Virus genome (UHGV): UHGV-0211740
DNA: 64,000 nucleotides
Strand: one strand, 5' to 3'
From: a virus
The position numbers and the translations under genes are program-made. Positions 23,750 through 47,916 of the stretch are shown piece by piece (within the stretch, counting starts at the first letter, position 1; every line of letters starts with the position of its first letter). The notes below the pieces were generated by a model. That model ran no database searches. It saw only the letters and a program-made list of their open reading frames with translations, and was not told the origin of the DNA.

Positions 23750-25126
23750 ATGCCATATTTAGATAAAGTGGTAGATGTTACAGTTAACCTCGGAACCCAG
23801 CCTATTGACACTGTAGGTTTCGAAACTCCCCTGTTCATCGCTATCCACAATAACTTTACTGAGCGAGCTCGCGTATATGCTGAGCTGGACCAGATGGTGG
23901 AAGATGGTTTCGCACAAGGCTCTGCAGCATATGAGTTTGCAGCAAAAGCTTTTGGTGGTGTATTCCCTCCACAATATGTTATGATCGGCAGACAAGCCAA
24001 AGAAAAAACCACTGTAGATTTTAAAGGTATTGCTGCCGCAGCCGATACCGATGTCGTAATGACTATTGCAAAAGGTGACTACAATACTGCCTTGATAGTC
24101 CCTGTTTCTGGTGGAACAGCTGCAACTCAGATTGCAGAATCAATGAAGACCAAAATTGAAGCAGATGATAGCTTGAACGATATCACTGTAGTGGCTTCTG
24201 AAGGTGTTCTCACCATCACTGGTGACTGCACTGTTGGTTATCATACTGGTAACTATACCATTAAGAATGTCCCTAATGCTGAAAAACCTTCTACAGTAAT
24301 TGACAAGATCAATGCTGAGCGAGACAATTGGTACTTCCTGTGCCATGAAGACCACACTGACATTGAAGCGTGTGCTAAGTGGGCTCAGGCTAACTACAAG
24401 TTGCATGTCTACTCTACTTCAGAAGATGTAACTGGTAAAGACAGCAACATCGCCGCTAAACTGAAAGCTGCAAAATATGACAGTGTTGGTATGTACGACC
24501 CTCGCGCCGACAAAGACTTCCCAGAGGGCGGTATTATCGGTGCTATGGCATCCAACGACCCATCTTACGGCGACAGCTTACACTTAAAACAGATGCCTGG
24601 TGTGCTTGCACCATCACTGACATTGACCCAGCGCATGGCGATTTGGGAGAACAACATTAACTTCTACAGAACAATCAACGGTGTTGGTGCTTTCTGGGAA
24701 GGTAAATGTGCCTCTGGTCAGTATGCAGATGCTATCCGCTTCGCTCACTGGATTAAGTTTAGATCTGAAGAGTCCATGTTCGGATATATGCACCGCCGCT
24801 CTAATATGGGCCTGAGCATGAAGATGTCTGATGATGATCTGCCAGTTATCAAGTCTGTTCTGATGAACAACCCGATCAATACGGGCATTAAGAACGGTGC
24901 GATCCTGACAGGTTTTGACGAAGACAATAATGTATTCTACGACCCGATCATTACAGTTCCAAAACGTGCAGAAATCCCGACCAACCAGTTGGCTGCTCGT
25001 GTTCTGGAAGGTGTGAAAGTAGAACTGGTGTATAACAACGCTCTGCACTTCGTTCGTATCCGGATCAACGTTCTTCTGGACAAAGTTGGTTCTAAATCCA
25101 CCAATGCTGTTGCAATGACTGAATAA
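23750..25126 (+). CDS. major tail structural protein (tail sheath-like; assignment tentative)
   Basis: 458 aa; followed by a 157-aa gene, a chaperone pair and the tape measure, the order expected for sheath-tube-chaperone-TMP; a C-terminal segment (FWEGKCASG) is reminiscent of sheath proteins from memory. Confidence 0.4.
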   Translation: MPYLDKVVDVTVNLGTQPIDTVGFETPLFIAIHNNFTERARVYAELDQMVEDGFAQGSAAYEFAAKAFGGVFPPQYVMIGRQAKEKTTVDFKGIAAAADTDVVMTIAKGDYNTALIVPVSGGTAATQIAESMKTKIEADDSLNDITVVASEGVLTITGDCTVGYHTGNYTIKNVPNAEKPSTVIDKINAERDNWYFLCHEDHTDIEACAKWAQANYKLHVYSTSEDVTGKDSNIAAKLKAAKYDSVGMYDPRADKDFPEGGIIGAMASNDPSYGDSLHLKQMPGVLAPSLTLTQRMAIWENNINFYRTINGVGAFWEGKCASGQYADAIRFAHWIKFRSEESMFGYMHRRSNMGLSMKMSDDDLPVIKSVLMNNPINTGIKNGAILTGFDEDNNVFYDPIITVPKRAEIPTNQLAARVLEGVKVELVYNNALHFVRIRINVLLDKVGSKSTNAVAMTE

Positions 25127-25136
25127 GGAATACTAG

Positions 25137-25610
25137 ATGGAAACTCAAATTTTAACTCCTTATGCGTATGACCCTAAAAAGGTCAAACTGTATCTGATGC
25201 AGCAGCGTGTCACTGGCTTCGCTGCTGACACCAAGATCGTTGTTTCAAGAAATGAAGACAACATCTACCCTCACGTCGGTGTGGATGGCGAAATGTCTGC
25301 GGCTCTGTCTCGTAACCAATCCGGTGTTATGACTGTATCTTTGCAGAACACTTCTGTATGGAACGCCTACCTTTCTGACTGGCAGAAACAGGCATCAATC
25401 ACTGGTCTGGTATTCTTCCCGGTTCTGTTGGAAGGTAGCCAGGGTCCTGGTATTGCCACAATCGGTTGGATCCAGAAACAGCCCGACCTGACTTATGGAA
25501 CCGAAGTAGGTCAGCTGGACTGGGATATCGGTATCCTGGATGCATGGCTCAACCGTGACAACATCACTGGTGCTCTCACTGGCCTCGCAGGTCTTGCAGG
25601 TATTATCTAA
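25137..25610 (+). CDS. putative tail tube protein
   Basis: 157 aa directly after the sheath-like gene. Confidence 0.4.
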   Translation: METQILTPYAYDPKKVKLYLMQQRVTGFAADTKIVVSRNEDNIYPHVGVDGEMSAALSRNQSGVMTVSLQNTSVWNAYLSDWQKQASITGLVFFPVLLEGSQGPGIATIGWIQKQPDLTYGTEVGQLDWDIGILDAWLNRDNITGALTGLAGLAGII

Positions 25611-25628
25611 GAGCACACTTCAGCATAA

Positions 25629-25659
25629 GCCTCACCTTCAGGTGGGGCTTTTTGCTTTT
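25629..25659 (+). terminator. rho-independent terminator
   Basis: GCCTCACC-TTCA-GGTGGGGC hairpin then TTTTTGCTTTT. Confidence 0.6.
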
Positions 25660-25700
25660 ATGGTTCTGACACACGTTCTTGAATTGCTTGAAAGGTTAAA

Positions 25701-25729
25701 TTGACAATGCACCATAATCATGGTAAAAT
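25701..25729 (+). promoter_or_regulatory. promoter with conserved TGGTAAAATA extended -10
   Basis: TTGACA (25701-25706), 17-nt spacer, TGGTAAAAT (25721-25729). Confidence 0.5.
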
Positions 25730-25772: not shown

Positions 25773-26246
25773 ATGGCTATAAACTTTAGACCTACAACAG
25801 AGATTGACTTAGCAGGGCACAACTTCGTGATCACCCACTGGGGGCCGATGAAGGCAATGAAAAACATGCCTAAGATTGGCAAGATTGTGGCTGTCCCGTT
25901 GGGTGCTATCGGTGGATCTATTATCTCAGGCGGTCAGAATATGGCAGAGGTCCTTCCTACTGCTCTGGCCTACCTGTTCCAGGAACTTGATGATAACTCT
26001 ATTGAAGAGTTATTTAAAATCTTGTTCGAAGATATTACTGTAGACGGTGTGGATAGGCTTAATCCCGATGTCGTGTTTGCAGGGCATCTGCTGGAAATGA
26101 TTAAACTGGCAGGTAAGGTTCTGGAGGTTAACTACGGCTGTTTTTTCACACAAGACGGTTTAGGAAGCCTTCTGGAGATGTTACAGCAGATGGGTATGAT
26201 TCAGCAGGTGAACAATCTGGATCAGACTCCGGAAGAGCAGGAATAA
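25773..26246 (+). CDS. tail assembly chaperone
   Basis: 157 aa, acidic C-terminus, directly upstream of tape measure; overlapped at its 3' end by an open -1 frame. Confidence 0.55.
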   Translation: MAINFRPTTEIDLAGHNFVITHWGPMKAMKNMPKIGKIVAVPLGAIGGSIISGGQNMAEVLPTALAYLFQELDDNSIEELFKILFEDITVDGVDRLNPDVVFAGHLLEMIKLAGKVLEVNYGCFFTQDGLGSLLEMLQQMGMIQQVNNLDQTPEEQE

Positions 26247-26506
26247 GCAAAGTTGTTGTGAGAGCCAGTGAGTGGGCAGCTAAGAATAGCTCACTTAACT
26301 GGTTCGACTTTCTTTGGTGTAGGGTGCTCAAGAACTTTAAAGGGGAAAATTTTGAATCGCTTAATCTTGCAGATATGGCGTATTTCCTCAAGCTCTGTGA
26401 GTATCTTGATATCGAAGAATTCCTAGATACCGTCCAAAACAGGGAAATGGAGCGGGAGCAGAAGGCTGCCGCAGCTGCTGCGAAAGCTAAGCGCAGGAGA
26501 GGATAA
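26132..26506 (+). CDS. tail assembly chaperone frameshift extension (GT-like, -1 frame)
   Basis: Frame open from 26132 to 26506 overlapping the last 115 nt of the chaperone gene; slippery heptamer T_TTT_TTC at 26141-26147 in the chaperone frame. Confidence 0.5.
   Translation, partial: LRLFFHTRRFRKPSGDVTADGYDSAGEQSGSDSGRAGISKVVVRASEWAAKNSSLNWFDFLWCRVLKNFKGENFESLNLADMAYFLKLCEYLDIEEFLDTVQNREMEREQKAAAAAAKAKRRRG
26141..26147 (+). other. candidate -1 programmed ribosomal frameshift slippery site
   Basis: TTTTTTC read as tgT TTT TTC (YGCFF) in the zero frame; matches X_XXY_YYZ. Confidence 0.5.
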
Positions 26507-26511
26507 TCTAA

Positions 26512-26560: not shown

Positions 26561-28900
26561 ATGGCTACAAATAAGATAGTTGCCACAACAGTCAACAAGA
26601 TTGGCTTTGAGATAGAGAACTCCTCCTACAAAAAAGCTGTAGAGAAAATTCGCAGTATCGGGAAGGAGTTCAGGAAACTGGGCGAGGATTTTAACTCAGC
26701 CAACCCCATGAGCAGATGGCAGGCAGTGGCTGTTAAAACTCAGCAGACAATGCAACGTGTTGCCAGACAGCAATCCCAAGCAAATGCTAAACTACACAGG
26801 GAGAGCGTTGCTCAGGCCAAGAAAGAGGCTGCAGTAAAGGCTGCAATAGAGCGCAGGGAGAATGCAAGACGTAAGCAAGCTGTAGGCAATCTTACCGCCA
26901 AAAACCCAGAGATGGCTAGGATGCGTAAGTTCTACCAGCAGCAAGCTAAAGAGGCCAAAAAAGCTGCCAAATCTGCACCAGTATCCTATGGTGGTTATAA
27001 GGCACCTAAGGCAAGAGTTCTTGCTAACGCCAAGTCTTTCAGATATATTCCCGGCAACCCTAACATGGGTGGGGTGGCTTCAGATCCTAATCTTGTGAAA
27101 GCCCAGACTGCTGCCATGAACCGTTATCACAGACAGCTAAGAAGGGACAGCAAGGCTGGGATGGATAATAGGCTTATGGCAGATCGTGAGGCAAGGAGAA
27201 CCCACCTCTACAACTCTGCGATAAGACTTTCTGCTAAATATGGTGCCGGATTCCGTGGCAGATTGTCTGGGTATTCGGAGTTAGAGTCCCGATTTGCTCG
27301 CGGGGAAATGAGTAAGTCAACCTTTAACGCCCACCTGTCTGCGTTGCAGTCTGGATTCAAAAGTGCCACCAGCCAAACTCTGACCCTCGGTGATGCTATG
27401 AGGGATTTGCGTAGATCTGTGATCAACGCTACAGCTGCGTATACAGCTTTTTCTGGATTTGCTGCAGTTAACAGATCCGGTCATATGATGGAGGGGGCAA
27501 GTGCTGCTCTTACTGCTGTTACTGGAGATCCAAACAAAGCCAACAGTGAAGTTGCGTTTGTCCAGCAGGAGGCTATGCGTCTTGGTTTTGACCTCAAGTC
27601 TGGTCTTCAGGGTTATTCTCAGATGGCGGTAAACGCCAAAAATCAGATGACAAACCAAGAGGTGCATGAGCTATTCTCTGCATACTCCCAATATGCTGCT
27701 GCTTACGGTGCCGATGAGGTAAAATACCAGCGCGGTATTATGGCAATCCAGCAAATGCTCGGTAAAGGGCAAGTAATGTCCGAAGAACTGAAGCAACAAC
27801 TTGCTGAAGCATTACCTGGTGCATACGAACCTTTTATCAAAGCTACCCAAGAGGCTTTTGGTCTTGCTGAGCTCTCCATGGATCAGTTCATGGACATGAT
27901 GAAAAAAGGTGAAGTTAAAACAGCCAAGATAATGAAGTATGTGGCTAAGTACATGAATGAGGCATCTGCAGCTGGTTATGAAAGAATGCAGAAGTCTAAC
28001 GTACTGGCAGAAAACAGACTGAAAACCTTCATCGAACTGTCCCGTCAGAAACTGTTCACACGTTGGGCAGATGAACTGACAGAGTTCTACTACACCCTGA
28101 TCCGCACAGGGGAAACTTTCCAGTTCCTATGGGACGCTTCTGGTGACTTTGTCAGCGGATTTGTGAGAGGTTTGAACTGGGTTGTTGGTGAACTAAACAA
28201 CACTATAGTTAAGATCCGTTTGTTTTTCCTTGAATGGGGAATTAAATGGGGGCTCATAACCGCCAAGACGAAGGAATATTCTGAAGAGATACATGACACC
28301 TTTAGCATGGCTAAATGGGCAGGGTATGCTGCTGCAATCATGCTGGTAGTGAACGCCCTTACAAAAGGGTTTGTTATGGCATCCATGCTTGTAAAAACAT
28401 TTAAGTTCCTCAGCAACCTGAGAGGTGCAGCTGGAGCTGCAGGTGCTGGTGCAGTAACCGCAGACGGCTCTGGAGGAGGAGCAGCCGGAAAAGGTGGTGG
28501 TGGCCTCAAGACACCTGGTGGCAAAGTTGGTCTGCTCGGTAAGCTGGGCATTATCGGTACAATACTAAGCGCCGGGGAATTATTTAATGACCGTTTCAAC
28601 CCGCTGAGTGAAAGAAATCAACAGCTGGATACCATCGGCGATATGATTCGTAAAGACATCATATCTGGAGGTAACGGGTTTGTTGATCCTCTAAGCACCT
28701 TGCCGGGAGGTACTCTTCCGTTACCAGGTGGCCCTGGTTTTGCTTCTCAGTTAAGAACTATGGAAATGCTACCTTTAGAGATCAGTGATGGTAAAATCAC
28801 GATTTCAATAGATGAGGGCGAGTTTAGCAAAATATTTGATGCAAAACTTGAGTGGGAGAACAGTAAAGATATCAACTTTATGTCCACAGATCTTTGGTAA
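26561..28900 (+). CDS. tail tape measure protein
   Basis: 779 aa; immediately after the chaperone frameshift pair; helix-rich N-terminal half with basic repeats, C-terminal Gly/Ala-rich hydrophobic segment (GAAGAAGAGAVTADGSGGGAAGKGGGG). Confidence 0.75.
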   Translation: MATNKIVATTVNKIGFEIENSSYKKAVEKIRSIGKEFRKLGEDFNSANPMSRWQAVAVKTQQTMQRVARQQSQANAKLHRESVAQAKKEAAVKAAIERRENARRKQAVGNLTAKNPEMARMRKFYQQQAKEAKKAAKSAPVSYGGYKAPKARVLANAKSFRYIPGNPNMGGVASDPNLVKAQTAAMNRYHRQLRRDSKAGMDNRLMADREARRTHLYNSAIRLSAKYGAGFRGRLSGYSELESRFARGEMSKSTFNAHLSALQSGFKSATSQTLTLGDAMRDLRRSVINATAAYTAFSGFAAVNRSGHMMEGASAALTAVTGDPNKANSEVAFVQQEAMRLGFDLKSGLQGYSQMAVNAKNQMTNQEVHELFSAYSQYAAAYGADEVKYQRGIMAIQQMLGKGQVMSEELKQQLAEALPGAYEPFIKATQEAFGLAELSMDQFMDMMKKGEVKTAKIMKYVAKYMNEASAAGYERMQKSNVLAENRLKTFIELSRQKLFTRWADELTEFYYTLIRTGETFQFLWDASGDFVSGFVRGLNWVVGELNNTIVKIRLFFLEWGIKWGLITAKTKEYSEEIHDTFSMAKWAGYAAAIMLVVNALTKGFVMASMLVKTFKFLSNLRGAAGAAGAGAVTADGSGGGAAGKGGGGLKTPGGKVGLLGKLGIIGTILSAGELFNDRFNPLSERNQQLDTIGDMIRKDIISGGNGFVDPLSTLPGGTLPLPGGPGFASQLRTMEMLPLEISDGKITISIDEGEFSKIFDAKLEWENSKDINFMSTDLW

Positions 28901-28973: not shown

Positions 28974-29006
28974 ATCTAAATGGTATCGGAGTGTCCTGGA
29001 GAGGTT

Positions 29007-29891
29007 ATGCCAAGTAATATAGTTGATGAAAAAGACCTGTACAAGCCTCAAGAGGTTAAATCTCCAAAGGCTGAAAAGGCAGAGCAGCAAACTGAAAGTG
29101 ATGTAAAGTATACTATGTTTGTCAGCGGTCTTAACTACGGCGGTCGCAATATAGAGATGAAGGGTAAAAACTTCACTAACGACCTTGCCATTATCTTCGA
29201 TCAGGTTGAGAATTATTCTTTTAAACAAACGGTCGATAAGTCAGATTTTGCAGTAGAAGATAAGTCTACCCTGTCAGATCATGCAGTGGTTAAGGATGGG
29301 GTATTTTCTTTCACTGGTCGGGTAAATACATCCCCTCATATAATTTATGAGCAAAACTACATTGATAGAAACACTGACTCCAAAAACCCTGCAGCGTCTA
29401 TGCGACCTGGTGCGGCATTAGAAGCTTTGACAGAGATCATTAATAAGCGACAGTTGGTTTCTTTAGTTACCGAGGAGAGACTCCTTGAAAACTACATTAT
29501 AACCAGTCTTTCTGCCAACAAGTCTGTTGGTGAAGGTGCTGCAATGGTGTTTGATGTGGAACTTACAGAATTCCGCACATTCTACTTGAACAAGGTTGTT
29601 AATGCAACTGTATACAGCAATCCTAAGAAGGTCGGCAAGACTCAGCAAAAAGGTGCTGTCAACGATTGCAAGAATGGTAGTAACGTAGGTAACAAGAGAG
29701 ACACAGGGGCATTTGCAGACACCGCGTCCACAAATGCTGCAGAAGAGTGGCAGCCATACAAATCTATGATGTGGACAGATGAAAACGGTGTTACCCAATC
29801 GGCTGCAGATTGGTACTATCAGGAATATGGAAGACCTTCCACCATAGTCCCATCTGAGCAGGGAAACTACAACAAAGTTAACGGAAAATAA
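29007..29891 (+). CDS. hypothetical tail/baseplate protein
   Basis: 294 aa from ATG 29007 (GGAGAGG RBS); first gene after the tape measure. Confidence 0.4.
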   Translation: MPSNIVDEKDLYKPQEVKSPKAEKAEQQTESDVKYTMFVSGLNYGGRNIEMKGKNFTNDLAIIFDQVENYSFKQTVDKSDFAVEDKSTLSDHAVVKDGVFSFTGRVNTSPHIIYEQNYIDRNTDSKNPAASMRPGAALEALTEIINKRQLVSLVTEERLLENYIITSLSANKSVGEGAAMVFDVELTEFRTFYLNKVVNATVYSNPKKVGKTQQKGAVNDCKNGSNVGNKRDTGAFADTASTNAAEEWQPYKSMMWTDENGVTQSAADWYYQEYGRPSTIVPSEQGNYNKVNGK

Positions 29892-29903: not shown

Positions 29904-30284
29904 ATGGAGCTTAAAGATTGGTGCGTAATCACCTTTGTGTGGGACATTGACGGCTTTCCTGATCAGACTATGCGTGTGGTTTTAGATAATGAAACCTATG
30001 AAATGCGTATGCAATGGAACGAGAGGGATGAGTCCTGGTGGTTATCTCTTGGTCCAGTAGGCGACAGTCCTTTAGTAACCAGAAAAGTAACAGCTTGTCA
30101 AGACATTTTAGACGGGCTGCATTACAGAGACGATTTACCGAAGGGTAGGCTAATGGCTCTGTCGTTTAAAGACGATCAATATTGGGGCAGGGTTGGAAGA
30201 TACAACCTTGGGGCCAGATCTGAGCTACAACTTGTATACGGCACCCCGGTTGATCTTTACAAGGAACAGCAAGGGTTAGACTAA
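29904..30284 (+). CDS. hypothetical tail/baseplate protein
   Basis: 126-aa ORF, Trp-rich, tightly packed in the tail module. Confidence 0.4.
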   Translation: MELKDWCVITFVWDIDGFPDQTMRVVLDNETYEMRMQWNERDESWWLSLGPVGDSPLVTRKVTACQDILDGLHYRDDLPKGRLMALSFKDDQYWGRVGRYNLGARSELQLVYGTPVDLYKEQQGLD

Positions 30285-31288
30285 TGGCAGAGTATAGACG
30301 TAGAACATGGCGATTGTTGTTTGGTCGCCCTGTAGAACATGGCGGAAAATCAAAAACCAATATCCCAAAATCTGTTGAAAAGAAAGGAGAAAGTGATTCT
30401 GGAGTTTATGAGGTTAGCTCAGACACAGGTGCTGCCAATATAGAGTTCGACATACAAAAGGATAACACCAAAGAGCCAAACAAAGGCTATGTGATAGTTT
30501 ACAACCTGTCTGACGATACGGTTAACTATCTGGACATGCACCAAGCTGATGCTCTTGCAGTGATGTTTGAGGCTGGCTATGATAATGAGAACCAGTTGAT
30601 ATTCTCAGGAACTGTAGAGTTTGTTGAAGATAGGTGGGAAGGCCCGACTAGGAAAACTAAGTTCATCTTCGGAGACGGCACTGAGAATATCATTAAGTGC
30701 CAAAGCACCAGATCTTATCAGAAAGGCACACCTCTGGACTCTGTGCTTAATGACCTCCTGAAGGATATGAACTTACCAAAAGGTAGGGTTGTTGGTTTTG
30801 GAAACCAAACTTTGCAATACTCTATGGCTTTCTCTGGGAACACTGCAGAGAACCTCCGCAGATTTGCAAGACTGACCAACTCAACATTTAGCGTTCAGGA
30901 TGGGGCTTTGTATTGGACCAAGGTTGGGAAAAGGTTCAAGGACTCTGTATTTGAAATCAGTGCAGAGTCTGGGATGCACGGATCGCCCACCCCTAAAAAC
31001 CCAGAGCCTGCGAGAAAACGAAAAGCTAAAGCTGCTGCAAAAGGCGGTTCAACATCTAAAAAGAAAAAGAAAAACCCGAAAGAGGACGTTGGTCTTACCG
31101 TGACAACATGTCTTAACGGGGCTATCCTCCCAGAGTCAACCATCTATCTTAAGAGCAGGCAATATACAGGCTTCTACAAGGTGATCACAGTGCACCACAA
31201 GGGCACCATCGAAGGAGGTGATTACATTACAGAGCTTGGACTTGGGGAAGCTGTTGGTGGGGTTGTTGACAAAACTGAGGAGGTATAA
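30284..31288 (+). CDS. hypothetical baseplate protein
   Basis: 334 aa; contains a Lys-rich stretch (KRKAKAAAKGGSTSKKKKKNPKE); ATGA overlap with upstream gene. Confidence 0.4.
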   Translation: MAEYRRRTWRLLFGRPVEHGGKSKTNIPKSVEKKGESDSGVYEVSSDTGAANIEFDIQKDNTKEPNKGYVIVYNLSDDTVNYLDMHQADALAVMFEAGYDNENQLIFSGTVEFVEDRWEGPTRKTKFIFGDGTENIIKCQSTRSYQKGTPLDSVLNDLLKDMNLPKGRVVGFGNQTLQYSMAFSGNTAENLRRFARLTNSTFSVQDGALYWTKVGKRFKDSVFEISAESGMHGSPTPKNPEPARKRKAKAAAKGGSTSKKKKKNPKEDVGLTVTTCLNGAILPESTIYLKSRQYTGFYKVITVHHKGTIEGGDYITELGLGEAVGGVVDKTEEV

Positions 31289-31965
31289 TGGCAATAAACA
31301 GGAAAGATGCTGCTGTAAGATCCTTTATAGAAAAGATAATGAGGGACTACCACACCAGTATTAGAGCCAGAGTTGTCAGTGTAGATTACAGTATCCCCTC
31401 TGCAGCCGTGCAGCCAATAGCCGAAACCATGTTTGACGATGGGGATGTAGAAAGGTACCCTCTTATCTATGATGTCCCAATTCAGGTGATGTCTGCAAAT
31501 GGTGGTAAGGCAAGGTTAACACTTCCTATTAAAGCTGGTGATGTTGTAGGGCTGCAATTTTCAGAGAGAAATGAAAACAATAACGATGACCAGCAAACCC
31601 ACGGCCTGTTTCCAGGATGGGCTATCACCTCTGTTCATTCTGACTCTAATGCCTTGCAGATCGACCCTGATAATGTAGAGTTATGGAACGACAGGGTTTA
31701 TTTTAAACTAACACCTTCTGGTGATTTTGAGCTTCAAACACCGGGCGGAACATTACGGTGCGACAGTAGCGGGGAGTTTTCTTTTACTAACGGAGCTGCC
31801 AATTTACGCGCTGCCGTAGATGGGAATATTAGAATGAATGGTGCCACAATAGATCCGTCAGGTAGAATCATAACGGCTGCTGGTGTGGATTTGGATTCAT
31901 TCTATGCAGAATATAAAGGTCATACTCACTCTTGCCCTGATGGCGAGACCAGTGGACCGCACTAA
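31288..31965 (+). CDS. hypothetical baseplate protein
   Basis: 225-aa ORF with GAGGAGG RBS. Confidence 0.4.
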   Translation: MAINRKDAAVRSFIEKIMRDYHTSIRARVVSVDYSIPSAAVQPIAETMFDDGDVERYPLIYDVPIQVMSANGGKARLTLPIKAGDVVGLQFSERNENNNDDQQTHGLFPGWAITSVHSDSNALQIDPDNVELWNDRVYFKLTPSGDFELQTPGGTLRCDSSGEFSFTNGAANLRAAVDGNIRMNGATIDPSGRIITAAGVDLDSFYAEYKGHTHSCPDGETSGPH

Positions 31966-33372: not shown

Positions 33373-33373
33373 G

Positions 33374-39843: not shown

Positions 39844-39845
39844 TA

Positions 39846-39874: not shown

Positions 39875-39905
39875 AACTATCATACTTGTTTAACCTGGAG
39901 GCACA

Positions 39906-40496
39906 ATGTTTTTATGGGAAAGGCCTAGATACCTTCCAGATATTAGATTAGAGTTGCTGGCAGATATTGTCACGTTTAAAAGCCCGTTTACAGGTAAAAC
40001 GCAAAAAGTAACCTATGCCACACCTAACTGGAAAGGCACTTTGACGGTTTCCAATATTAGCGAATCGCAGTTGCTTGAGCTCAAGAGTTTTGTTGACCAA
40101 GTTTACAAAGATGGGAATATCTTTCTTATCAAAACTTATGGTCATTCGGTGACAGCCAATGAGCCAATCGCTCTCGGACCGACTGGTAACGACGATTTTT
40201 TGAAGACGGTTGGTTGGGAGCCGAACAGGGATATAGCCAGAGCTGGGGATAAGATATCTGTTAATGATGAGTTGAAAGTGGTAACAGCTCCAGTACGTAG
40301 TGATGGTGTTGGGGCCGCTGTTATAAACATATCTCCAAGACTTAGGAAACCTATTGCAGCAGGGGATACTATGAAGATAATAACTCAATCCCCGAAGGGT
40401 AGGTTTCATATCAGAGATATTTATAAAATTAAGCAAAAAGTTGATGCTATGCAAAAAGGCGATAATATAGTTATCAATTTCTTTGAGGATTTCTAA
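39906..40496 (+). CDS. putative minor tail / tail-tip protein
   Basis: 196-aa ORF with GGAGG RBS; first of three small genes preceding the J-like gene. Confidence 0.4.
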   Translation: MFLWERPRYLPDIRLELLADIVTFKSPFTGKTQKVTYATPNWKGTLTVSNISESQLLELKSFVDQVYKDGNIFLIKTYGHSVTANEPIALGPTGNDDFLKTVGWEPNRDIARAGDKISVNDELKVVTAPVRSDGVGAAVINISPRLRKPIAAGDTMKIITQSPKGRFHIRDIYKIKQKVDAMQKGDNIVINFFEDF

Positions 40497-40497
40497 G

Positions 40498-41049
40498 ATG
40501 ATCAGAGCTCCATTAGATAATTTATTTATTGAAAATATAGAGCTTGATGGCGTTGAGATCTTAATTGCTGCAAAACTGGAGCTACCAACAGGAACTGTCA
40601 GGGTGTGCTCAGGCACTGGTGTTGTAGTAATTGAAGGGCAACATTTTATAGGTATAGGTGGATCAGCTACATTAACTGCTGTGTCGGAGAAAGATGCCAC
40701 CAACTTCGGATCTGTGGTAGCAACATTGAACGGGTTTGACCCTAAATATGTTGGTGATTTGTTGAAGACTGAGTATTCAGGTTGTCGTGCCACGTTATAC
40801 ATTACAGCCATGGAGAATGGTCTGCCAGTAACCACTAATGGCTTGTTTGACGGACTTATAACAGATATGGCTATTCAGACAGGAGAGAATAGTGCTCTAT
40901 CTATATCCATATCTTCAATCTTCAACAGCTGGCTAAGAGGGTTCCCTTATCGCTACACAGAAGAAAGTCATAGCTCAAGAAACGACAACGATAGATTTTT
41001 TAAATATGTGGATCAGGTGGCTAGTCGCCCGATCATTTGGGAGGTTTAA
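40498..41049 (+). CDS. putative minor tail / tail-tip protein
   Basis: 183 aa from ATG 40498; stop overlaps next start (TAATG). Confidence 0.4.
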   Translation: MIRAPLDNLFIENIELDGVEILIAAKLELPTGTVRVCSGTGVVVIEGQHFIGIGGSATLTAVSEKDATNFGSVVATLNGFDPKYVGDLLKTEYSGCRATLYITAMENGLPVTTNGLFDGLITDMAIQTGENSALSISISSIFNSWLRGFPYRYTEESHSSRNDNDRFFKYVDQVASRPIIWEV

Positions 41050-41477
41050 TGAGTATCATACATCCTCGTTTAGTAGACTGGCAAGAAAGATTGTTGAAGG
41101 TGTTTGACGAAGAGTCAGCCGTTCCGTTCGAGTGGGGATTTCACGATTGTTGCACTTTTGCAGCCAAGTGTGTTGATGCTCAGTATGGAACAGATATTCT
41201 CTCTAACTTCGAAGGCACGTACAAAACAGAACTGGAAAGTAAGAGATGGTGTATGTTACATTTCAAAACCACCAACTTGCCTACCATTTTTGATCTCTTT
41301 ATGACCAGACTGGATACTCCTAAACAGGTTCAGCGTGGAGATATTGTTATTTTCAAAGGTCTGAACGGACTTACCGCTGGCGTGTTTTGGAACAATCAGA
41401 TTTGGTCAAAAGGTGATAAAGGGGTCTTTATGTTTGACATGAAAGATTCTATCGTTGTTGATGTCTGGAGGTATTAA
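41049..41477 (+). CDS. putative tail-associated NlpC/P60-like peptidase
   Basis: 142 aa; candidate catalytic Cys context GFHDCCTFAAKCV resembles the G-x-D-C motif of NlpC/P60 peptidases; position directly upstream of the J-like gene. Confidence 0.4.
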   Translation: MSIIHPRLVDWQERLLKVFDEESAVPFEWGFHDCCTFAAKCVDAQYGTDILSNFEGTYKTELESKRWCMLHFKTTNLPTIFDLFMTRLDTPKQVQRGDIVIFKGLNGLTAGVFWNNQIWSKGDKGVFMFDMKDSIVVDVWRY

Positions 41478-44400
41478 TGCCAATTGCAATGATTGATAAC
41501 ATCGTTGCTTCTGCAAGATCTTCGAGCTATGACTGGAACGCATCCAAGGCGGCTCTGGCTGACAGTCTGAACACTGTTACCACCAGAACTCTGGATAAGA
41601 TTTTTGAGGGCAACAAATCTTACAGAGGCCAGCAAGATAGACAAAAGCTTCTCAGATCTTCAGCTGCACCTTGTTCTGTAGTGTATGGGAAGACACGCAC
41701 ATCGGGATTGCTTGCGTTTTTGGAGCAGGACAGGGACAGAACCCTCCATTGTGCCATTGTTCTTGCCAATCACCCTCTGGAAGGTGTAGAAGACATACTT
41801 ATCGACGGTAATCCTATTTCTTCATATGGAGATTTGGTATCGTGGGAGCTGCATAACGACAGAAAAACATCTGATCCTTTCATGGGGACACACTGCCCTT
41901 CGTGGTCACCAGACATGATAGGTAGAGGGATCAGTTGGCTGCGTGCCAGCTTCAAATTTGACCCTAACAAGTTTCCTTTTGGGTTGCCAAACGTTACACT
42001 CGTCAAGGTTGGTAAAAAATGCTATGATCCTCGCATCAGCAAAGAGGTGTATACCAATAACGCGGCCTTGGTGATTCTGGACTATTTAAGAACATACCTT
42101 AAATGTCCTGACGAAACCATCAACTGGGAGTCCTTCAAGGAAGCTGCCAACATATGTGACGAGGCTGTAAGAAACGCTGACGGAACCAGTGAGCGTCGTT
42201 ACACCATCAATGGTGAGTTCGACATGGATGAGGCTCCAGCAAGCATCATGGCAGAAATGCTGAAAGCCTGTGGTGCAGATCTTAGCTATGTGGCTGGTAA
42301 GTATGGATTGCTGGTTGGGGCCTATTATGGACCAGCAACAATGACACTGGGTGAGGATTGTGTTTGTGGTGAAGTCAAGATCTATCCAGAAGCTTCCTTT
42401 GACAAAAGATCCAACACAATAACTGGTAGATTCACCAGTCCTGCCAAAGGATACTCTGAAACAGATTTCCCATCAGTGTTTGTTCCAGAGTGGATAGAGA
42501 AGGATGGGGAAAGAAAGATAATCGATATAGATTATCGTTTTGTCACCAGTCCTTATCAGGCCCAGCGTGTTTCCGCGATATTCTTAAGACGTGCCAGAGC
42601 TGGTAGGATTATTGAAGTCACGTGCAATATGCGTGGTTTTAAATTTAAGCCTGGACGCTACGTCACAATGAACCTCCCAAGTATTGGCATAGTAGGCCAA
42701 GAGATGAGAGTTCTTGAGTGGGAGTTCACTAAAAAGGGCGGTGTTAAGGTAAAACTTCGTCAAGATGCGAAAGAGTGGAATGATGCCACAGGTCAACTTC
42801 CTGACTCTGGTGATGTAGATATTCCTGTGTCCCCATCTGGTGTGGCTCAACCGCAAAACTTCAGATTCTCTGTTCTTCAAGCTGGAGAAGTAACTCATGG
42901 TGTTTTAGCTTGGGACAACGTTGGGACTTACGCTCAAAACATTGTGCAGGTCAGGAAAAATGGAGAGATTGTCTGGACAGCACAGACAGTTGAGCAGTTT
43001 GTCCGTGTTGAAGGTCTGACTAAAGGGTCTTACACAGCCACTGTTGTTGCAACATCTTATAAAGGCGGTGTATCTCCAGAAGCGTACTGTGAGTTTAACA
43101 TTCAGGCACCTGAGGCTCCGGTTTCTGTAGAAGTTAAGCAGGGATATTTTGCTATCACCTTAATTCCGCACAGCAGGGATTTAGCAAGTGTCAGCACCCA
43201 GTATGACTTTTGGACATCCGGCATGACAAGGTTGCCTGACACTAGTGATGCAACCGTCACTTCAAAAGCTACTCGCATGGGTGTTGGTTCAACTTGGACA
43301 TCTGAAGGTCTGCAGAACGATAAGGTTTATTATTGGTATATTCGAACCACAAACGCTTTTGGTAGTTCTCAGTTTGTAGAGTGTGCTGCACGCTGCTATA
43401 CCTCTATTGAAGATTTGATGCCTCAGATAGATGCTGAATTTAAAAAGACAGAGACTTATAAAGAGTTGATGAGCACTTTAGATTCTTCTATCGAAGAGGT
43501 TGAAAATCGGGTCACAGAACTTAACAAGTACATGGATGGTAGAGTTGATGAAGCTTTTGATCACATGGAAAGTGAGTTCTCTAGAGTAGACAAGCTGTAT
43601 GCTCAGCTGGGAGATAGGGTAGGGGTATTCATCCAAGAAACCAGTGAAAACTTCCAAGATGTTAATGGAACGCTTACCGCTCTCGACCAGAAACTGGTAG
43701 CCACTCAGAACAAGTTTACAGATGATCTCTCTAAAGAAAGTGGCAAGCTAACCTCTCTGATCCAGACCACTAACAAAGCTACAACTGATCTTCTTAATAA
43801 GAAAACAGAAGCTTTGGACGAGAAGATTGTTTCGACCAGGGGCGAGTTGGAAGATGCTTTAGCACAGGAAAGCGCTGAGCTGAACTCTCTGATTGTATCT
43901 ACCAATAAAACGACTACAGATCTCCTTAATCAGAAAACCGAGGCACTGGACAATAAGCTGACGGCAACGAAAGGTGAGTTGACCAACAACTTGAATAATG
44001 AGAGTGCTAAACTGTCGTCGTTGATTGAGACAACCAACAAATCCACCACTGATCTTCTTAACAAGAAAACAGATGCGTTGGATGAAAAACTGGTTGCTGC
44101 ACAGGGTGAGCTAACTGAGCAGATTGGCGATGTTGAAAAAGGTTATCTGGCTGGAGATAAGAGCCTAGAAGGTAAGTTGAATACTCAGAGATCTGAGTTG
44201 GATGCAAGCATTCTGAGTACTAATCAGGCTACTGTGGATTTGCTGAATAGAACTTCTCAGACTCTTGACCAGAAGATTAGCCAGACTAACGCCACGGTAT
44301 CTAAAAACTACACCACTCTAGATGGCAAGATCAACACCACCAAATCTGATCTCAATACGTTGATCTCTACCACCAACAAGGCCACAACGGACCTGCTGAA

Positions 44401-45622
44401 TCAGAAAACTGCAGCCTTATCTGAACAATTAACCTCTGCTAAAGGGCAGATTACAACCAACACCAATAATATTACGGGGTTGGATAATAAGCTTACCCAA
44501 GCTAAGAAAGATTTGTCTGCAAATATTTCTGAAACTAATCAGGCCACTGTTGACCTGATTAACGGAACAGCGTCAGCTATTCGTCAAGAACTTGCTGTTG
44601 CTAAGCAGGAGATCATTGATGATGTTGGAGATGTGTCCGAGATCAGGGCTGCAGTAGCTACAACATCTAAGGCTGTAACCGACTTAGAGGGCAAAGTAAA
44701 CGCTCAGTGGGGCACAAAAATACAGGTAGACTCCGCAGGGAATAAATATGTTGCAGGTATCCAGTTGGGGATGGAAGGGTCTGGGGGCCAAGTTCAATCC
44801 TACTTCATGGTTAGTGCAAACAATTTTGCGGTATATAACCCTGGGAATGGAACAGCAACCCTTGCCTTTGCAATCAAGAACAACCAGGCGTTCTTGAAAG
44901 ATGCCTTCATAGAGAATGGCACAATCTCTTCAGCCAAGATTGCACAAGAGATTTCGTCAAACAACTACGATGGCAACGGGTACCACAAATACGGCTGGTA
45001 TATTAACAAGAATGGGCACGCCCAGTTTATGGATGTGTGGGTGAAAGGCAACATCAACGCTAGTGCAGGTAACTTCACAGGAGCAGTTAACGCCACCAGC
45101 GGTACCTTCCGTGGCGATGTTTATGCCAACAACGGTAGTTTTAGAGGTACCATAGACGCAACAGGTGGTACTTTCCGTGGGCGTGTAGAAGCTTCTGTTA
45201 TCCGTGCCAACCAGTTTGAAGGTGCAATTGTTGCACACAGGACCTATGGTGACTGTCCTCCGGTATATAACTCCCAGCAGAGGGTTTGCCGCTGGAAATG
45301 GAGATATGTGGATAACGTGCAAGGCCAAGGTAAGAACGTAACATTCTTCTTTAAACTGAACGGTACGCTCGCCAGCTCCCAGCTTAACGTTTGGATAGCC
45401 GGACATCAAATCCTTGCAGGTAAGAAGTACGGAAACGACAACAACGGCATGTGTGCGGTAGGGATAACGGGTCTAGGTGAACAGACCATAGACATTATCG
45501 TTGAAATTTACACACCATGGTCAACGTCAAGCGTGACAGGAGTTACAATATCTTGTCCTACTGTTGTGGTGAGCCGATCCAACTCAAGTTTCCAAGGCCC
45601 TTGGAACGAGTCTCACGACTAA
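41477..45622 (+). CDS. tail tip / central fibre protein, lambda J-like (host specificity protein family)
   Basis: 1381 aa; several blocks match lambda gpJ from memory (GYFAITLIPH, WYIRTTNAFGSSQFVE, KYVAGIQLGMEGSGGQVQSYFMVSANNFAVYNP...AFLKDAFI); central run of about ten degenerate repeats (TTNK.TTDLLN.KTEALD.KL). Confidence 0.75.
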   Translation: MPIAMIDNIVASARSSSYDWNASKAALADSLNTVTTRTLDKIFEGNKSYRGQQDRQKLLRSSAAPCSVVYGKTRTSGLLAFLEQDRDRTLHCAIVLANHPLEGVEDILIDGNPISSYGDLVSWELHNDRKTSDPFMGTHCPSWSPDMIGRGISWLRASFKFDPNKFPFGLPNVTLVKVGKKCYDPRISKEVYTNNAALVILDYLRTYLKCPDETINWESFKEAANICDEAVRNADGTSERRYTINGEFDMDEAPASIMAEMLKACGADLSYVAGKYGLLVGAYYGPATMTLGEDCVCGEVKIYPEASFDKRSNTITGRFTSPAKGYSETDFPSVFVPEWIEKDGERKIIDIDYRFVTSPYQAQRVSAIFLRRARAGRIIEVTCNMRGFKFKPGRYVTMNLPSIGIVGQEMRVLEWEFTKKGGVKVKLRQDAKEWNDATGQLPDSGDVDIPVSPSGVAQPQNFRFSVLQAGEVTHGVLAWDNVGTYAQNIVQVRKNGEIVWTAQTVEQFVRVEGLTKGSYTATVVATSYKGGVSPEAYCEFNIQAPEAPVSVEVKQGYFAITLIPHSRDLASVSTQYDFWTSGMTRLPDTSDATVTSKATRMGVGSTWTSEGLQNDKVYYWYIRTTNAFGSSQFVECAARCYTSIEDLMPQIDAEFKKTETYKELMSTLDSSIEEVENRVTELNKYMDGRVDEAFDHMESEFSRVDKLYAQLGDRVGVFIQETSENFQDVNGTLTALDQKLVATQNKFTDDLSKESGKLTSLIQTTNKATTDLLNKKTEALDEKIVSTRGELEDALAQESAELNSLIVSTNKTTTDLLNQKTEALDNKLTATKGELTNNLNNESAKLSSLIETTNKSTTDLLNKKTDALDEKLVAAQGELTEQIGDVEKGYLAGDKSLEGKLNTQRSELDASILSTNQATVDLLNRTSQTLDQKISQTNATVSKNYTTLDGKINTTKSDLNTLISTTNKATTDLLNQKTAALSEQLTSAKGQITTNTNNITGLDNKLTQAKKDLSANISETNQATVDLINGTASAIRQELAVAKQEIIDDVGDVSEIRAAVATTSKAVTDLEGKVNAQWGTKIQVDSAGNKYVAGIQLGMEGSGGQVQSYFMVSANNFAVYNPGNGTATLAFAIKNNQAFLKDAFIENGTISSAKIAQEISSNNYDGNGYHKYGWYINKNGHAQFMDVWVKGNINASAGNFTGAVNATSGTFRGDVYANNGSFRGTIDATGGTFRGRVEASVIRANQFEGAIVAHRTYGDCPPVYNSQQRVCRWKWRYVDNVQGQGKNVTFFFKLNGTLASSQLNVWIAGHQILAGKKYGNDNNGMCAVGITGLGEQTIDIIVEIYTPWSTSSVTGVTISCPTVVVSRSNSSFQGPWNESHD

Positions 45623-45630
45623 CCTTTAAA

Positions 45631-45656
45631 GCCCCGCTTCGGCGGGGTTTATTTTT
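45631..45656 (+). terminator. rho-independent terminator
   Basis: GCCCCGC-TTCG-GCGGGGT hairpin then TTTATTTTT. Confidence 0.65.
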
Positions 45657-45665
45657 ATGCTCAGA

Positions 45666-45694
45666 TTGACTATTGTTACAAAATTTGGTAAAAT
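45666..45694 (+). promoter_or_regulatory. promoter with conserved TGGTAAAATA extended -10
   Basis: TTGACT (45666-45671), 17-nt spacer, TGGTAAAAT (45686-45694). Confidence 0.5.
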
Positions 45695-45727
45695 ACCTTG
45701 TAGAGATTTTCATACCGGAGGAGTGAA

Positions 45728-47218
45728 GTGGCTAAGTATGGATTGACAGAGGCTGGTTTCGTTATACCAACCCTAAATGACCTGATCGTTGAAACTAAGC
45801 AAAGCCTGATCCGTGCTTTTGGCGAAAACTTCAACGTACAGAGTAACTCAGTTGCAGATAAGCTGACCACTATCTTCAACGAGCGAGAGTATCAACTTAT
45901 TCTTATGGCAGCGTCTGTGTATGCATCGCAGACACTGTATGGGGCAGAGGGTATTTACCTTGATGAACTTCTTGGAAGACAAGGTATTTACCGAAGAGGT
46001 CGTTCTAAATCATCAGGTACCTGCCAGTTGACAATTAACACAACTGTGCCGTACAATATGATTTATGATTCCAAAACTTACACGCTGGACAGTGGCAACT
46101 TTGTCCTCAGTAATGACGTGCAGGTAGCTGGGAATCTGATTGCTCACAGAATAAACGCTCCAGACCTAAGAATTGGGAAATACAATTTTCAAATTACCAA
46201 CCAGACAGATGGAAGTATCAAAACAAAAAGTCTGGTTTTAACAGATAAGGCCCTGGACTCTTCTGATCTTCCCAGCTTTTACGGGGAGATTAAGCAATTT
46301 ATTGTCGATAATACAACCCTGTTGAACGACGATTTGATCCAGATCGATATGTTGACAGGTACGTTGTGGATAGGTTACAATTCTAACCTTGATCAAGTTG
46401 GGCTTAATAGTAGGGTGGATTTCAGAGTATCTCCGATTGTAGGGGAAAGAACTATCACCCTGGATGTTATCGCTAACGAGGCTGGTGAGCTGTCAAGAGA
46501 GGCAGAAACTGTAACAACAATGTCACCTACCCCTAGTGGGTTTATTAAACTCACCAACCGAGAAAGATTCAATGAGGGCAGGGATGTTGAGAAAGACTCT
46601 GAGTATCGCTTAAGAGCTACCAGCACTAAACAGCTGACATCTAAAGCTACTCGCCCTGCAATCCTTAGCGCCGTAAGCGAGGTGAAAGGTGTTGAGAAAG
46701 TGAGAGTGTTCTCTAACAACACCGATAAAACGGATGCGAAAGGTATACCACCTTACAAATTTCAAGTGGTGGTGTTTGGTGGTACAACAGAGGATATCTG
46801 TCAAGCATTGTATCAAACCATAGCTTGCACAAACAGAACTTATGGTAATATCTTCTACGATATTAATACATCAGACGGTCAAACTGAAAGGATTTATTAT
46901 TCTAAGGCAAACACTTACCGTCTGGATATGAGGATTACCTACTCAGGTGCTGCGCTTTCCACGACTGAAAAAGATGCTATTACAGAGGCCCTTCTGCAGG
47001 TTGTTAATGGACTAGATGTTGCCGATACGTTGTATAATATCCAATTGGTTGGTGCTGCATCTGCGGCTGTTTCTATAGGCAGATTTAACAGACTGGTAAT
47101 TCAAGTTAAACCTGTAGGGGCTTCTGATGAAGCTTACACCACAAACGACATTGTTGCAAACATGACCGAGGTGTTTGACCTCGACGAAAGTAATATAACT
47201 TTCCAACAAACTATTTAA
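45728..47218 (+). CDS. putative baseplate wedge protein (baseplate J-like family)
   Basis: 496 aa, GTG start with GGAGG RBS; N-terminal region pattern resembles P2 gpJ / T4 gp6-type proteins as I recall them; followed by a gpI-like gene. Confidence 0.45.
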   Translation: MAKYGLTEAGFVIPTLNDLIVETKQSLIRAFGENFNVQSNSVADKLTTIFNEREYQLILMAASVYASQTLYGAEGIYLDELLGRQGIYRRGRSKSSGTCQLTINTTVPYNMIYDSKTYTLDSGNFVLSNDVQVAGNLIAHRINAPDLRIGKYNFQITNQTDGSIKTKSLVLTDKALDSSDLPSFYGEIKQFIVDNTTLLNDDLIQIDMLTGTLWIGYNSNLDQVGLNSRVDFRVSPIVGERTITLDVIANEAGELSREAETVTTMSPTPSGFIKLTNRERFNEGRDVEKDSEYRLRATSTKQLTSKATRPAILSAVSEVKGVEKVRVFSNNTDKTDAKGIPPYKFQVVVFGGTTEDICQALYQTIACTNRTYGNIFYDINTSDGQTERIYYSKANTYRLDMRITYSGAALSTTEKDAITEALLQVVNGLDVADTLYNIQLVGAASAAVSIGRFNRLVIQVKPVGASDEAYTTNDIVANMTEVFDLDESNITFQQTI

Positions 47219-47229
47219 GGCGGCGAGAT

Positions 47230-47916
47230 ATGGCAGAGATTAAGTCGGATGTCAACCACATCCACACTCTGCCAGATTTTGTTCAGGGAGGTCTTGACTA
47301 CCTGCCTGGAGATTTTCTGGCTGAGAAGGTTAATTTGGTCACATTCTTAACCGTGTACCTTAAAAGGTTGGAGGATGTTGATAAGATGCTGGTAGGTTTG
47401 GCTGAAGGAAGATTGCTTAACAATGCCAGCGGAAGATACCTTGACGAGGTAGGAAATCAGCTTGGCATTCTTAGGAACGGGCTTTCAGATGCCGATTTTC
47501 GTGCCACACTAATTATTCAGCAGGCAGCATCCTCAAGGGGTGGGACTAGAGAAGATGTCATCTCCACTTTGCGACAATTGTTCGGAAGAAATAATTTCGA
47601 TACGTGGAAAGGTGACAACTTCAGGTTTGACATAAATATTAGAAAAACTTGCTTTGATATACTGCAGTCTATCGATCAGATCTTAGATATGCTACCGCTG
47701 CCTTGCCATTTGCGGCTTACAGAGTCGCAGGGGCAAGCTTTTGGCTTTGAAGGGGACTCAACAGCTCTCGGTTTCGGATCAGTGTGGGAAGAAAACCAGT
47801 TCGGAGTTGGTGGATTGGCTACTTTATTGTACGTTCCTGACGTAAGACCTGATTGGGACACCACAACCATTTATTGTGAAAGTATTACAGTGAACGCAAC
47901 TAGACAGGAGGGTTAA
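47230..47916 (+). CDS. putative baseplate protein (P2 gpI-like)
   Basis: 228 aa; segment SRGGTREDVISTLRQLFG...W..DNFRFDINI resembles the gpI family block (KGT...V.EW...FRLDI) from memory. Confidence 0.45.
   Translation: MAEIKSDVNHIHTLPDFVQGGLDYLPGDFLAEKVNLVTFLTVYLKRLEDVDKMLVGLAEGRLLNNASGRYLDEVGNQLGILRNGLSDADFRATLIIQQAASSRGGTREDVISTLRQLFGRNNFDTWKGDNFRFDINIRKTCFDILQSIDQILDMLPLPCHLRLTESQGQAFGFEGDSTALGFGSVWEENQFGVGGLATLLYVPDVRPDWDTTTIYCESITVNATRQEG

Follow-up and report, generated by a model that had tools for sequence, protein, structure and literature searches.

Why does a phage with a contractile tail carry the tail-tip genes of a siphovirus? The question is raised by positions 23750-47916 of a 64,000-nucleotide stretch of the virus genome UHGV-0211740 (hereafter the window). 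A module of four genes at 39906-45622 encodes, in this order, a distal tail protein (Dit)-like protein, a protein resembling lambda gpL, a DUF6950 protein and a J-type protein, and it is flanked by genes of a contractile tail, those for fibres on one side and those for the wedges on the other. An earlier note on this DNA had proposed that either its own family assignments were partly wrong or this phage has an unusual hybrid distal tail. Its open reading frames (ORFs) were all recovered where it had placed them, and profiles and solved structures confirm the sheath and both wedges, which removes the first option. The second is supported at the level of genes, except that the trait is genus-wide and not peculiar to this phage. 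Our reading, to which we give a probability of roughly 55%, is that a siphovirus-derived module resides in a myovirus with a complete baseplate and serves there as an accessory fibre complex for adsorption rather than as a conduit for DNA.

Megablast and annotated relatives identify the source of the window as a Vequintavirus, an rV5-like contractile-tailed coliphage (myophage). The tail region matched 146 phage records, 112 of which cover at least 80% of it, mostly at 90-95% nucleotide identity, and the top match is a Vequintavirus at 96.9%. Annotated rV5-type relatives are Bas59 EduardKellenberger and NHEP1, and nucleotide identity to rV5-type genomes is ~91%. The tail of rV5 is contractile by electron microscopy (PMC3606486). 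All large ORFs of the window, from about 8 kb to 61 kb, are on the + strand, as is every feature of the tail region described below. Eighteen GenBank records (MG0656xx) labeled 'Campylobacter phage' (host C. jejuni) are ~91% identical in nucleotide sequence over 24 kb; their host label looks doubtful.

The last gene of the module (41477-45622) encodes a 1381-aa J-type hub and central-fibre protein. The lambda J blocks that the earlier note saw in it are clearly present: the protein matches Pfam Phage_Tail_Tip (5e-39), Ig_J_second (1.5e-30) and Ig_J, and aligns to residues 666-990 of solved lambda J (8iyk_J) at E=4.7e-28. From the N-terminus, a hydrophilic segment is followed by hub domains (HD) II-IV (~70-490), immunoglobulin-like (Ig)/FN3 domains (~493-652), a proline-free helical stalk (~655-1058), Phage_Tail_Tip (1059-1199) and a conserved C-terminal domain (~1227-1381). 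A search with the single J sequence did not reach the hub region. The first 500 aa, used as a seven-sequence profile, matched T5 pb3 (residues ~263-766, E=8e-24), the DT57C hub (1e-23), the T1 J-like protein (1e-12), the lambda J hub (265-482, 5.6e-6) and RcGTA g15 (6tba_8A, 6e-4). Because this profile reaches the hubs and all seven of its members match Pfam Phage-tail_3, J is, by homology, a full hub-plus-fibre protein and not a fibre with borrowed Ig domains. In GenBank, pipelines name it 'tip attachment protein J' or 'central tail fiber J'; for its orthologue the rV5 paper recorded COG4733 and an HHpred match of hub type, and the BASEL annotation calls it a lateral fibre ('lateral fibre with FN3 domain').

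Two features set this J apart from its siphoviral relatives. Its first 45 aa retain the initial MP-IA residues and have a mean Kyte-Doolittle hydropathy of 0.01 with 9 charged residues, whereas in six siphoviral J proteins the corresponding stretch of ~45 aa is Ala/Gly/Ile-rich, with hydropathies of 0.65-1.70 and 0-4 charged residues; the hydrophobic N-terminal segment of these six relatives is missing. The second feature is the stalk (window ~43400-44650), a proline-free, Thr/Leu/Lys-rich segment of about 400-410 aa that is ~340 aa longer than in siphoviral J and, built as a helical rod, would add ~50 nm. The motif TN(K/Q)xT(T/V)DL(L/I)N occurs in it six times in the window, four times in Bas59 and not at all in Seuratvirus J, and the 102-aa length difference between the window and Bas59 proteins consists of two extra ~44-aa stalk units. 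Stalk copy number varies within the genus, and fibre length would vary with it, while both ends of J remain ~97% identical (the N-terminal 690 and C-terminal ~150 residues are ~97-98% identical to Bas59). Tandem Repeats Finder detected no DNA-level repeats in J; the stalk repeats are visible at the protein level only. The idea that J is a variable host-range determinant was rejected, as the genus-wide 60-80% identity band proved to be a stalk-length indel and not tip divergence.

The second gene (40498-41049, 183 aa) encodes a gpL-like hub domain I protein. Mechanical ORF calling begins this gene at TTG 40483 (188 aa); ATG 40498, two bases past the stop of the first gene, is the more likely start, and it is where both the database homologues (183 aa) and the siphoviral alignment begin. 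An exhaustive HMMER search recovered 617 homologues. PF09931 ('baseplate hub protein, N-terminal attachment domain') was the sole Pfam family matched, by 12 of the 129 homologues scanned. An AlphaFold2 model built on the 617-homologue alignment (predicted local distance difference test score, pLDDT, 82.7) was compared with the PDB by Foldseek, and matched the N-terminal part of DT57C/T5 pb3 (E=4.6e-7), lambda gpL (8iyk_L; E=6e-5, TM 0.62, 169 columns), RcGTA g13 (6tba_7A; 1.2e-4), a JBD30 baseplate chain and the T1 tail-tip chain 9l9p_J, with myophage hubs as more distant matches. At the sequence level hhalign gave E=0.83 against lambda gpL, and Pfam Phage_tail_L was not matched. The Fe-S-type Cys cluster of gpL is lacking (there are two Cys, neither conserved in the family alignment), and the protein is shorter (183 versus 232 aa). 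Judged from the model, this protein is hub domain I. Such a split hub is known from lambda, where gpL supplies HD I and gpJ supplies HD II-IV; the two are fused in T5 (PMC13243795). Longer homologues of the second gene (323-493 aa) were considered as Dit-L fusions and rejected, having neither Dit-family similarity nor a Pfam match.

The first gene (39906-40496, 196 aa) matches phrog_1302 'distal tail protein' at 3.5e-50 and is a candidate siphovirus-type Dit-like protein. With its family profile as the query against the PDB, the T5/DT57C Dit was the second-best match at a sub-threshold E=0.45 (hmmsearch). By hhalign it is co-linear with T5 pb9 over 132 columns at a weak P=0.0057, and it aligns to lambda M at E=0.1 across just 24 columns. 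No lambda-family Pfam model is matched. Each of these similarities is weak alone, but they are mutually consistent and in line with gene position, and together they tentatively suggest a Dit. Other searches with the small proteins returned little: PDB-sequence profile searches with the families of genes 2 and 3 gave only noise (HIV gp120 in the case of gene 2), a concatenated three-protein alignment gave one irrelevant match, and a word-indexed search with gene 1 and the 188-aa version of gene 2 found only close Vequintavirus copies, at least 86% identical.

The third gene (41037-41477, 146 aa) has the position of lambda gpK and matches Pfam DUF6950 (1e-33). The earlier note had described three small proteins and an NlpC/P60-like peptidase ahead of J; there are three small ORFs upstream of J, and the supposed peptidase is this DUF6950 protein, whose NlpC/P60 similarity is only weak. 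D37-C38 is invariant in the DUF6950 family alignment, which has no invariant His. At the position expected for the NlpC/P60 'HVGIY' motif, the family reads (T/S)x(A/G)(V/I)F. An hhalign comparison with lambda gpK (E=0.012) aligned the F-x-x-G-x-x-D-C motif and the next GD(I/V) motif. NLPC_P60 was matched at E ~0.09 by two of seven relatives and not by the window protein; an NCBIfam scan matched no family, and Pfam gave no MPN/JAB domain match. The label 'NlpC/P60-like' thus appears reasonable but unproven, and activity as a Cys-His peptidase is doubtful.

The module as a whole has close counterparts in siphoviruses. A tblastn search with J led to SLUR25, a 59-kb Seuratvirus (Queuovirinae) that is ~50% identical over residues 48-1226. 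After its tape measure gene, SLUR25 has ORFs of 194, 194 and 144 aa, with J as the fourth. Identities between the window and SLUR25 for the four genes in order are 34, 40, 45 and 50% (BLASTP E=5e-31, 1e-47, 2e-46 and 0.0). The same block, its genes matching in order and size and again behind the tape measure gene, occurs in a Klebsiella phage, Roseobacter CRP-701, Vibrio 51E28.4 and Pseudomonas phiPSA1, and Acinetobacter phage W9 (Lokivirus) carries it after the tape measure gene with one extra gene inserted. The W9 insert (3208-5940) is a 910-aa gene between the Dit-like and gpL-like genes, so this tip module tolerates insertions. The 'lambda-type' cluster of the earlier note is therefore syntenic with a siphovirus tip block in all four genes, although it is closer to Queuovirinae, T5 and RcGTA tips than to lambda.

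The surrounding genes are those of a contractile tail. The sheath (23750-25126, 458 aa) matches phrog_205 'tail sheath' at E=3e-119 and Pfam DUF3383 at 49.7 bits (cut-off 34.9), in agreement with the Bas59 annotation and with the earlier note. The adjacent 157-aa ORF (25137-25610) occupies the tube position and is annotated as tube in Bas59; its assignment comes from synteny and annotation, together with matches to Pfam KPP10_Orf10 (4e-9) and phrog_280 (virion structural protein), and the protein at this position was detected as a virion protein in rV5. One member of the presumed chaperone pair, 25773-26246, is a tail assembly chaperone (Pfam Phage_TAC_15 3e-23; phrog_3840), whereas its 82-aa partner (26258-26506) belongs only to phrog_10409, a conserved family of no known function. 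The tape measure gene called by the earlier note is well supported (26561-28900, 779 aa; Pfam TMP_3 2e-18, phrog_5255 E=0).

A baseplate gene series follows. We identified a tube initiator forming a myoviral Dit-like ring (28980-29891, 303 aa; Pfam Dit_like 7e-22, Bas59 annotation, position of phi92 gp135; PMC13450770), a plug or spacer (29904-30284, 126 aa; Pfam Pam3_gp18 3e-18, position of phi92 gp136) and a myoviral hub (30284-31288, 334 aa; phrog_196 'baseplate hub' 7e-82). The central spike (31288-31965, 225 aa) has a PF18352 N-terminal domain (6e-10) and an apex HxH motif; H212-T213-H214 is invariant and common to Mydovirus and phi92-like spikes, and the canonical exposed apex is kept without an extra docking domain. 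The next gene (31978-32694, 238 aa; phrog_4233, phrog_120) is a putative sheath initiator from its position, that of phi92 gp139, with homologues in the same position in Mydovirus Ro1 and phi92-like PaulScherrer. Beyond the module lie wedge 2 (45728-47218, 496 aa; Pfam Baseplate_J, phiTE 9cuy_T E=3e-157, phi92 gp145 21vq_h E=2.4e-55) and wedge 1 (47230-47916, 228 aa; phiTE 9mjn E=1.3e-66, phi92 gp146 21vq_D E=9.6e-23, phrog_4056), so that both wedge genes of the earlier note stand on profiles and on solved phiTE and phi92 chains. That note had stated that its mixed tail module would be refuted by a siphovirus tube family at 23750-25126 and non-baseplate families at the two wedge positions; we found the opposite, since the phi92 and phiTE structures describe exactly the tail-gene architecture seen in the window. 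In those baseplates (PDB 21vq, 9cuy, 9mjn) the tube initiator, plug, hub, spike, sheath initiator and wedges are homologous and in the same order. By this homology, the window encodes a complete phi92/phiTE-type baseplate. The available portions of the phi92 and phiTE structure papers list no component like the four-gene siphoviral module (PMC13450770, PMC11972413).

Judged by homology, then, the genome encodes two Dit-plus-hub sets, one myoviral and one siphoviral, and the myoviral set is orthologous to structures that occupy the tail axis and hold the tape measure C-terminus. The siphoviral set begins ~11 kb after the end of the tape measure gene (28900), with ten baseplate and fibre ORFs between. 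A terminator-like hairpin with a UUCG tetraloop and T-run precedes the module (39814-39833), and another with a UUCG tetraloop follows J (45629-45650). The two are near-identical, the sequence CCCGCTTCGGCGGGG being present in both flanks (39814-39905 and 45629-45727), and each is followed by TGGTAAAATA, an extended -10-like motif. Because both flanks carry such a hairpin with its TGGTAAAATA motif, the module is probably its own late transcription unit. Hairpin plus TGGTAAAATA may be a recurrent terminator/late-promoter cassette of this genome. A promoter-like site, TTGACT-17-TAAAAT with TG, lies before the wedge genes (45666-45694) and is a consensus match only.

The distribution of the module is sharply divided. 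Using the 188-aa version of the gpL-like protein in tblastn, we recovered 118 records at 95-99% identity, none at 60-95% and 227 below 60%; the Vequintavirus genomes listed are 129-144 kb, and those below 60% are 29-85 kb among the matches listed. Apart from the J stalk indel, Bas59 and the closest genome carry all four genes undamaged and at 92-100% identity, and a lineage at ~86% identity retains them. None of the four proteins was found (E<1e-3) in the 25-kb tail loci of Mydovirus Ro1 and phi92-like PaulScherrer, which do hold the sheath initiator and wedge 2, and Septuagintavirus has its wedge gene immediately beside the sheath-initiator gene (PMC11370258). These arrangements indicate that the interval from sheath initiator to wedge is, at the level of gene order, a variable slot, filled in Vequintavirus by fibre genes and the module. 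The module is thus a genus-wide Vequintavirus trait, ~98% conserved over some 118 genomes, and this genus is the only carrier among the myoviral relatives examined. Because the block is widespread and linked to the tape measure gene in siphoviruses and present in a single examined myovirus genus, transfer from siphovirus to Vequintavirus is the economical direction, and we infer that the Vequintavirus ancestor acquired it from a Queuovirinae-like siphovirus. At 34-50% identity the transfer was not recent.

What might such a module do on a contractile tail? Its separation from the tape measure gene, its own hairpin-bounded unit and an axis that already has a hub and spike point to a changed role. 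We propose that DNA would no longer leave a tail through the module, which has instead been recruited as an appendage for adsorption. A J trimer, on which the gpL-like and Dit-like partners probably still form a cap, would assemble separately and be attached to the baseplate or fibre network; it would serve there as an additional long fibre for adsorption, with a stalk that helical repeats may have lengthened by ~340 aa (~50 nm). The DUF6950 protein would most likely have an assembly role like that of lambda gpK and is probably not an active peptidase. Peripheral mounting, in up to six copies, seems more likely than a single coaxial copy under the spike, since the module lies in the lateral-fibre slot, the spike apex is ordinary and exposed, and J has lost its hydrophobic N-terminus. 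Purified rV5 virions yielded a strong, fully tryptic peptide of gp37, the J orthologue, that is identical in the window J.

Several observations weigh against this proposal. The Dit and NlpC/P60 assignments depend on weak profile similarity, and the single-sequence AlphaFold2 model of the DUF6950 protein is unusable (pLDDT 38.7). The rV5 mass-spectrometry evidence for J is thin, with 4 peptides, 4.2% coverage and that peptide as the only strong tryptic one, and no small module protein is listed in the available part of the rV5 virion table; the run was shallow (4 spectra for the tube), so no J copy number can be derived from it. Cryo-electron microscopy of the Vequintavirus phages Bas49 and Bas54 located three fibre types, and the J-like fibre was not fitted (PMC12143355). 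The maps left density unassigned, and one Vequintavirinae fibre with an N-terminus 'common in central tail fibers' was not located (PMC12143355). Published screens attribute Vequintavirus receptors, a surface polysaccharide (described as ECA or NGR) and the lipopolysaccharide core, to other fibres (PMC8594841; 10.64898/2026.04.02.716166), and the C-terminal domain of J is near-invariant across the genus and so no obvious host-range variable. A conserved Dit-like six-fold-to-three-fold adaptor would also fit the tail axis better than a lateral fibre. The hybrid tail is a result at the level of genes.

One alternative keeps J as the sole structural product, an ordinary lateral fibre attached by its former hub domain, and makes the small proteins non-virion assembly factors or chaperones. 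Lambda gpK, an assembly factor that is absent from virions, provides a precedent. The available part of the rV5 table lists J as the only module product, and RBPseg modelling treated the J-like fibre of Vequintavirinae as a trimer on its own (PMC12143355). The rV5 run, however, lacked the depth to reveal small proteins of low copy number. Siphovirus Dit and gpL/HD I are parts of the tail structure and make up one surface together with HD II-IV (PMC13243795), the Foldseek matches of the gpL-like protein are virion chains, and the small proteins are as conserved in the genus as J. We therefore consider this arrangement unlikely, although it is the alternative that fares best.

A single coaxial tip is the next possibility, and it strikes us as rather improbable. 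One Dit6-(gpL-like)3-J3 cone would sit under the baseplate on the tail axis with the spike in its lumen, where a siphovirus has the tape measure C-terminus; J would be the central fibre, and receptor-triggered opening of the cone, as in T5 and lambda, would gate or accompany sheath contraction. In its favour, the entire six-fold-to-three-fold adaptor set (Dit-like, HD I and HD II-IV) has been kept with high conservation, the symmetry of a hexameric Dit ring agrees with that of the baseplate axis, the remodelled N-terminus of J would be the part facing the lumen, and an invariant C-terminus is expected of a conserved terminal receptor. Against this, the spike has its canonical exposed HxH apex and no extra docking domain, and a spike forms the distal tip of the related phi92 and phiTE structures (PMC13450770, PMC11972413). 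The Bas49 and Bas54 baseplate maps report no central fibre (PMC12143355), BASEL annotators call J a lateral fibre, and the spike would need to pass through a closed hub. The broader conception of a physical chimera, in which a closed siphovirus-type cone (Dit ring, split hub and J) is carried on the contractile baseplate, either coaxially or in six copies around the spike, and its opening feeds or gates sheath contraction, is similarly speculative. If true, an entire sub-assembly of one tail architecture would be reused as a sensor on another.

That the module is a relic or passenger, an acquired block with little or no expression and no virion role, is very improbable. Spectral counts for J are low and published screens assign it no receptor or phenotype, but none of its four ORFs is disrupted and each is 92-100% identical to its counterpart in the other genomes compared (J hub and C-terminus ~97%), the 188-aa protein is 95-99% identical in 118 records and the 86%-identity lineage keeps the genes. 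Purified rV5 contains the strong tryptic J peptide, and the stalk has been elaborated through repeat expansion and not degraded. An artefact, either a chimeric myovirus/siphovirus assembly or fibre domains (Ig/FN3, tip) shuffled onto a myoviral fibre, has almost no chance of being the explanation and was rejected: such domains are known to move among fibre proteins, but 112 records cover at least 80% of the region, several with annotated module genes in the same order, and the homology to SLUR25 of all four genes and the J hub profile extend beyond fibre domains to the hub domain and three separate accessory genes.

An accessory complex mounted on the periphery might have neighbours to attach to. 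Lateral fibre and spike genes fill 32704-39806 (222 aa, 865 aa and a split fibre of the 1270-aa type), with Pfam Tail_spike_N, Peptidase_S74 and tail-fibre PHROG matches. A TSP1/Gp66-type Tail_spike_N domain occurs on two of these proteins (32704-33372 and 35986-38487). Other phages use this domain type in branched tailspike assemblies. Its presence on two proteins suggests a branched fibre network and a possible attachment site for the J complex. The split fibre (35986-39806) is the homologue of rV5 gp41/Bas59_0026 (1270 aa, with Tail_spike_N at the N-terminal and Peptidase_S74 at the C-terminal end) and is divided into ORFs of 833 and 362 aa by a one-base deletion at 38464/38465, where the window reads GCTG-ATAGG and both Bas59 and NHEP1 read GCTGCATCGG. 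A real pseudogene, a phase variant and a sequencing error are all conceivable here; the S74 C-terminus is also reported to be missing from LL12 gp41. Farther downstream, two similar ORFs (50001-51041, 346 aa, and 52053-53099, 348 aa) correspond to rV5 gp30 and gp33, paired short-tail-fibre paralogues, and the first is followed by a 194-aa ORF at the position of the Bas59 tail fibre chaperone. The largest ORF of the window (55181-60814, 1877 aa) corresponds to rV5 gp27 and to the Bas59 'lateral tail fiber with intimin domain'.

The literature that we searched annotates J; no description of the whole Vequintavirus module was found there, nor any account of the siphoviral four-gene synteny, the gpL-like and Dit-like partners, the genus restriction or the N-terminal remodelling of J, and DUF6950 is not mentioned in it. 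The rV5-like phages are among the most often isolated coliphages and are candidates for therapy and biocontrol. Once the 'lateral fibre with FN3 domain' is seen to be the final gene in an intact tip module of siphovirus type, a testable Dit6-L3-J3 assembly hypothesis is available for the unassigned map density. The same recognition yields a case in which a sub-assembly of several proteins, and not just single fibre domains, moves between tail architectures. The module offers a natural experiment on which features of a J hub serve DNA passage (a hydrophobic N-terminus, tape measure adjacency) and which serve fibre display. Should the cone lie on the tail axis, the understanding of how contractile tails are triggered would change.

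Compared with known systems, the module is most like the Queuovirinae tip block (Seuratvirus/Nonagvirus, SLUR25, 9g and the wider family), which has the same four genes in the same order and at near-identical sizes, including the DUF6950 protein and the Phage-tail_3 hub. That block directly follows the tape measure gene and ends a non-contractile tail, whereas the window block lies in a tail cluster that encodes a sheath, and in its J the hydrophobic N-terminal segment has disappeared and the helical stalk has grown by ~340 aa. With the lambda tip, gpM-gpL-gpK-gpI-gpJ (PDB 8iyk), the window shares gene order, the hub, Ig and tail-tip domains of J and the gpL fold of the second gene, and it has its third gene in the gpK position with a weak alignment at the catalytic Cys motif. 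Lambda differs in having gpI, for which the window has no counterpart (no ORF between 41477 and J, and no Lambda_tail_I match), in a gpK that combines MPN/JAB with NlpC/P60 where the window has a 146-aa DUF6950 protein only, and in a 109-aa gpM where the first gene of the window encodes 196 aa and is nearer to T5 pb9. The small proteins of the window match none of the Pfam models for the lambda small proteins.

Among solved structures, the T5/DT57C tip (Dit pb9, hub pb3 and central fibre pb4; PDB 7zhj, 8hqz) gives the best match to each of the two hub parts. T5 makes its hub as a single polypeptide and has pb4 as a separate fibre protein, whereas the window hub is divided, as that of lambda is, and continues into the fibre. 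There is no DUF6950 gene in the corresponding position of T5. The RcGTA genes g12-g15 encode what we take to be a Dit, a hub attachment-domain protein, a cysteine-peptidase-like protein and a J-like 'megatron'. The RcGTA tip (g12-g13-g14-g15; PDB 6tba) has the same order as the window, and the similarity is distant. By these comparisons the module is lambda-like in its organisation, and its nearest solved relatives are the T5 and RcGTA tips.

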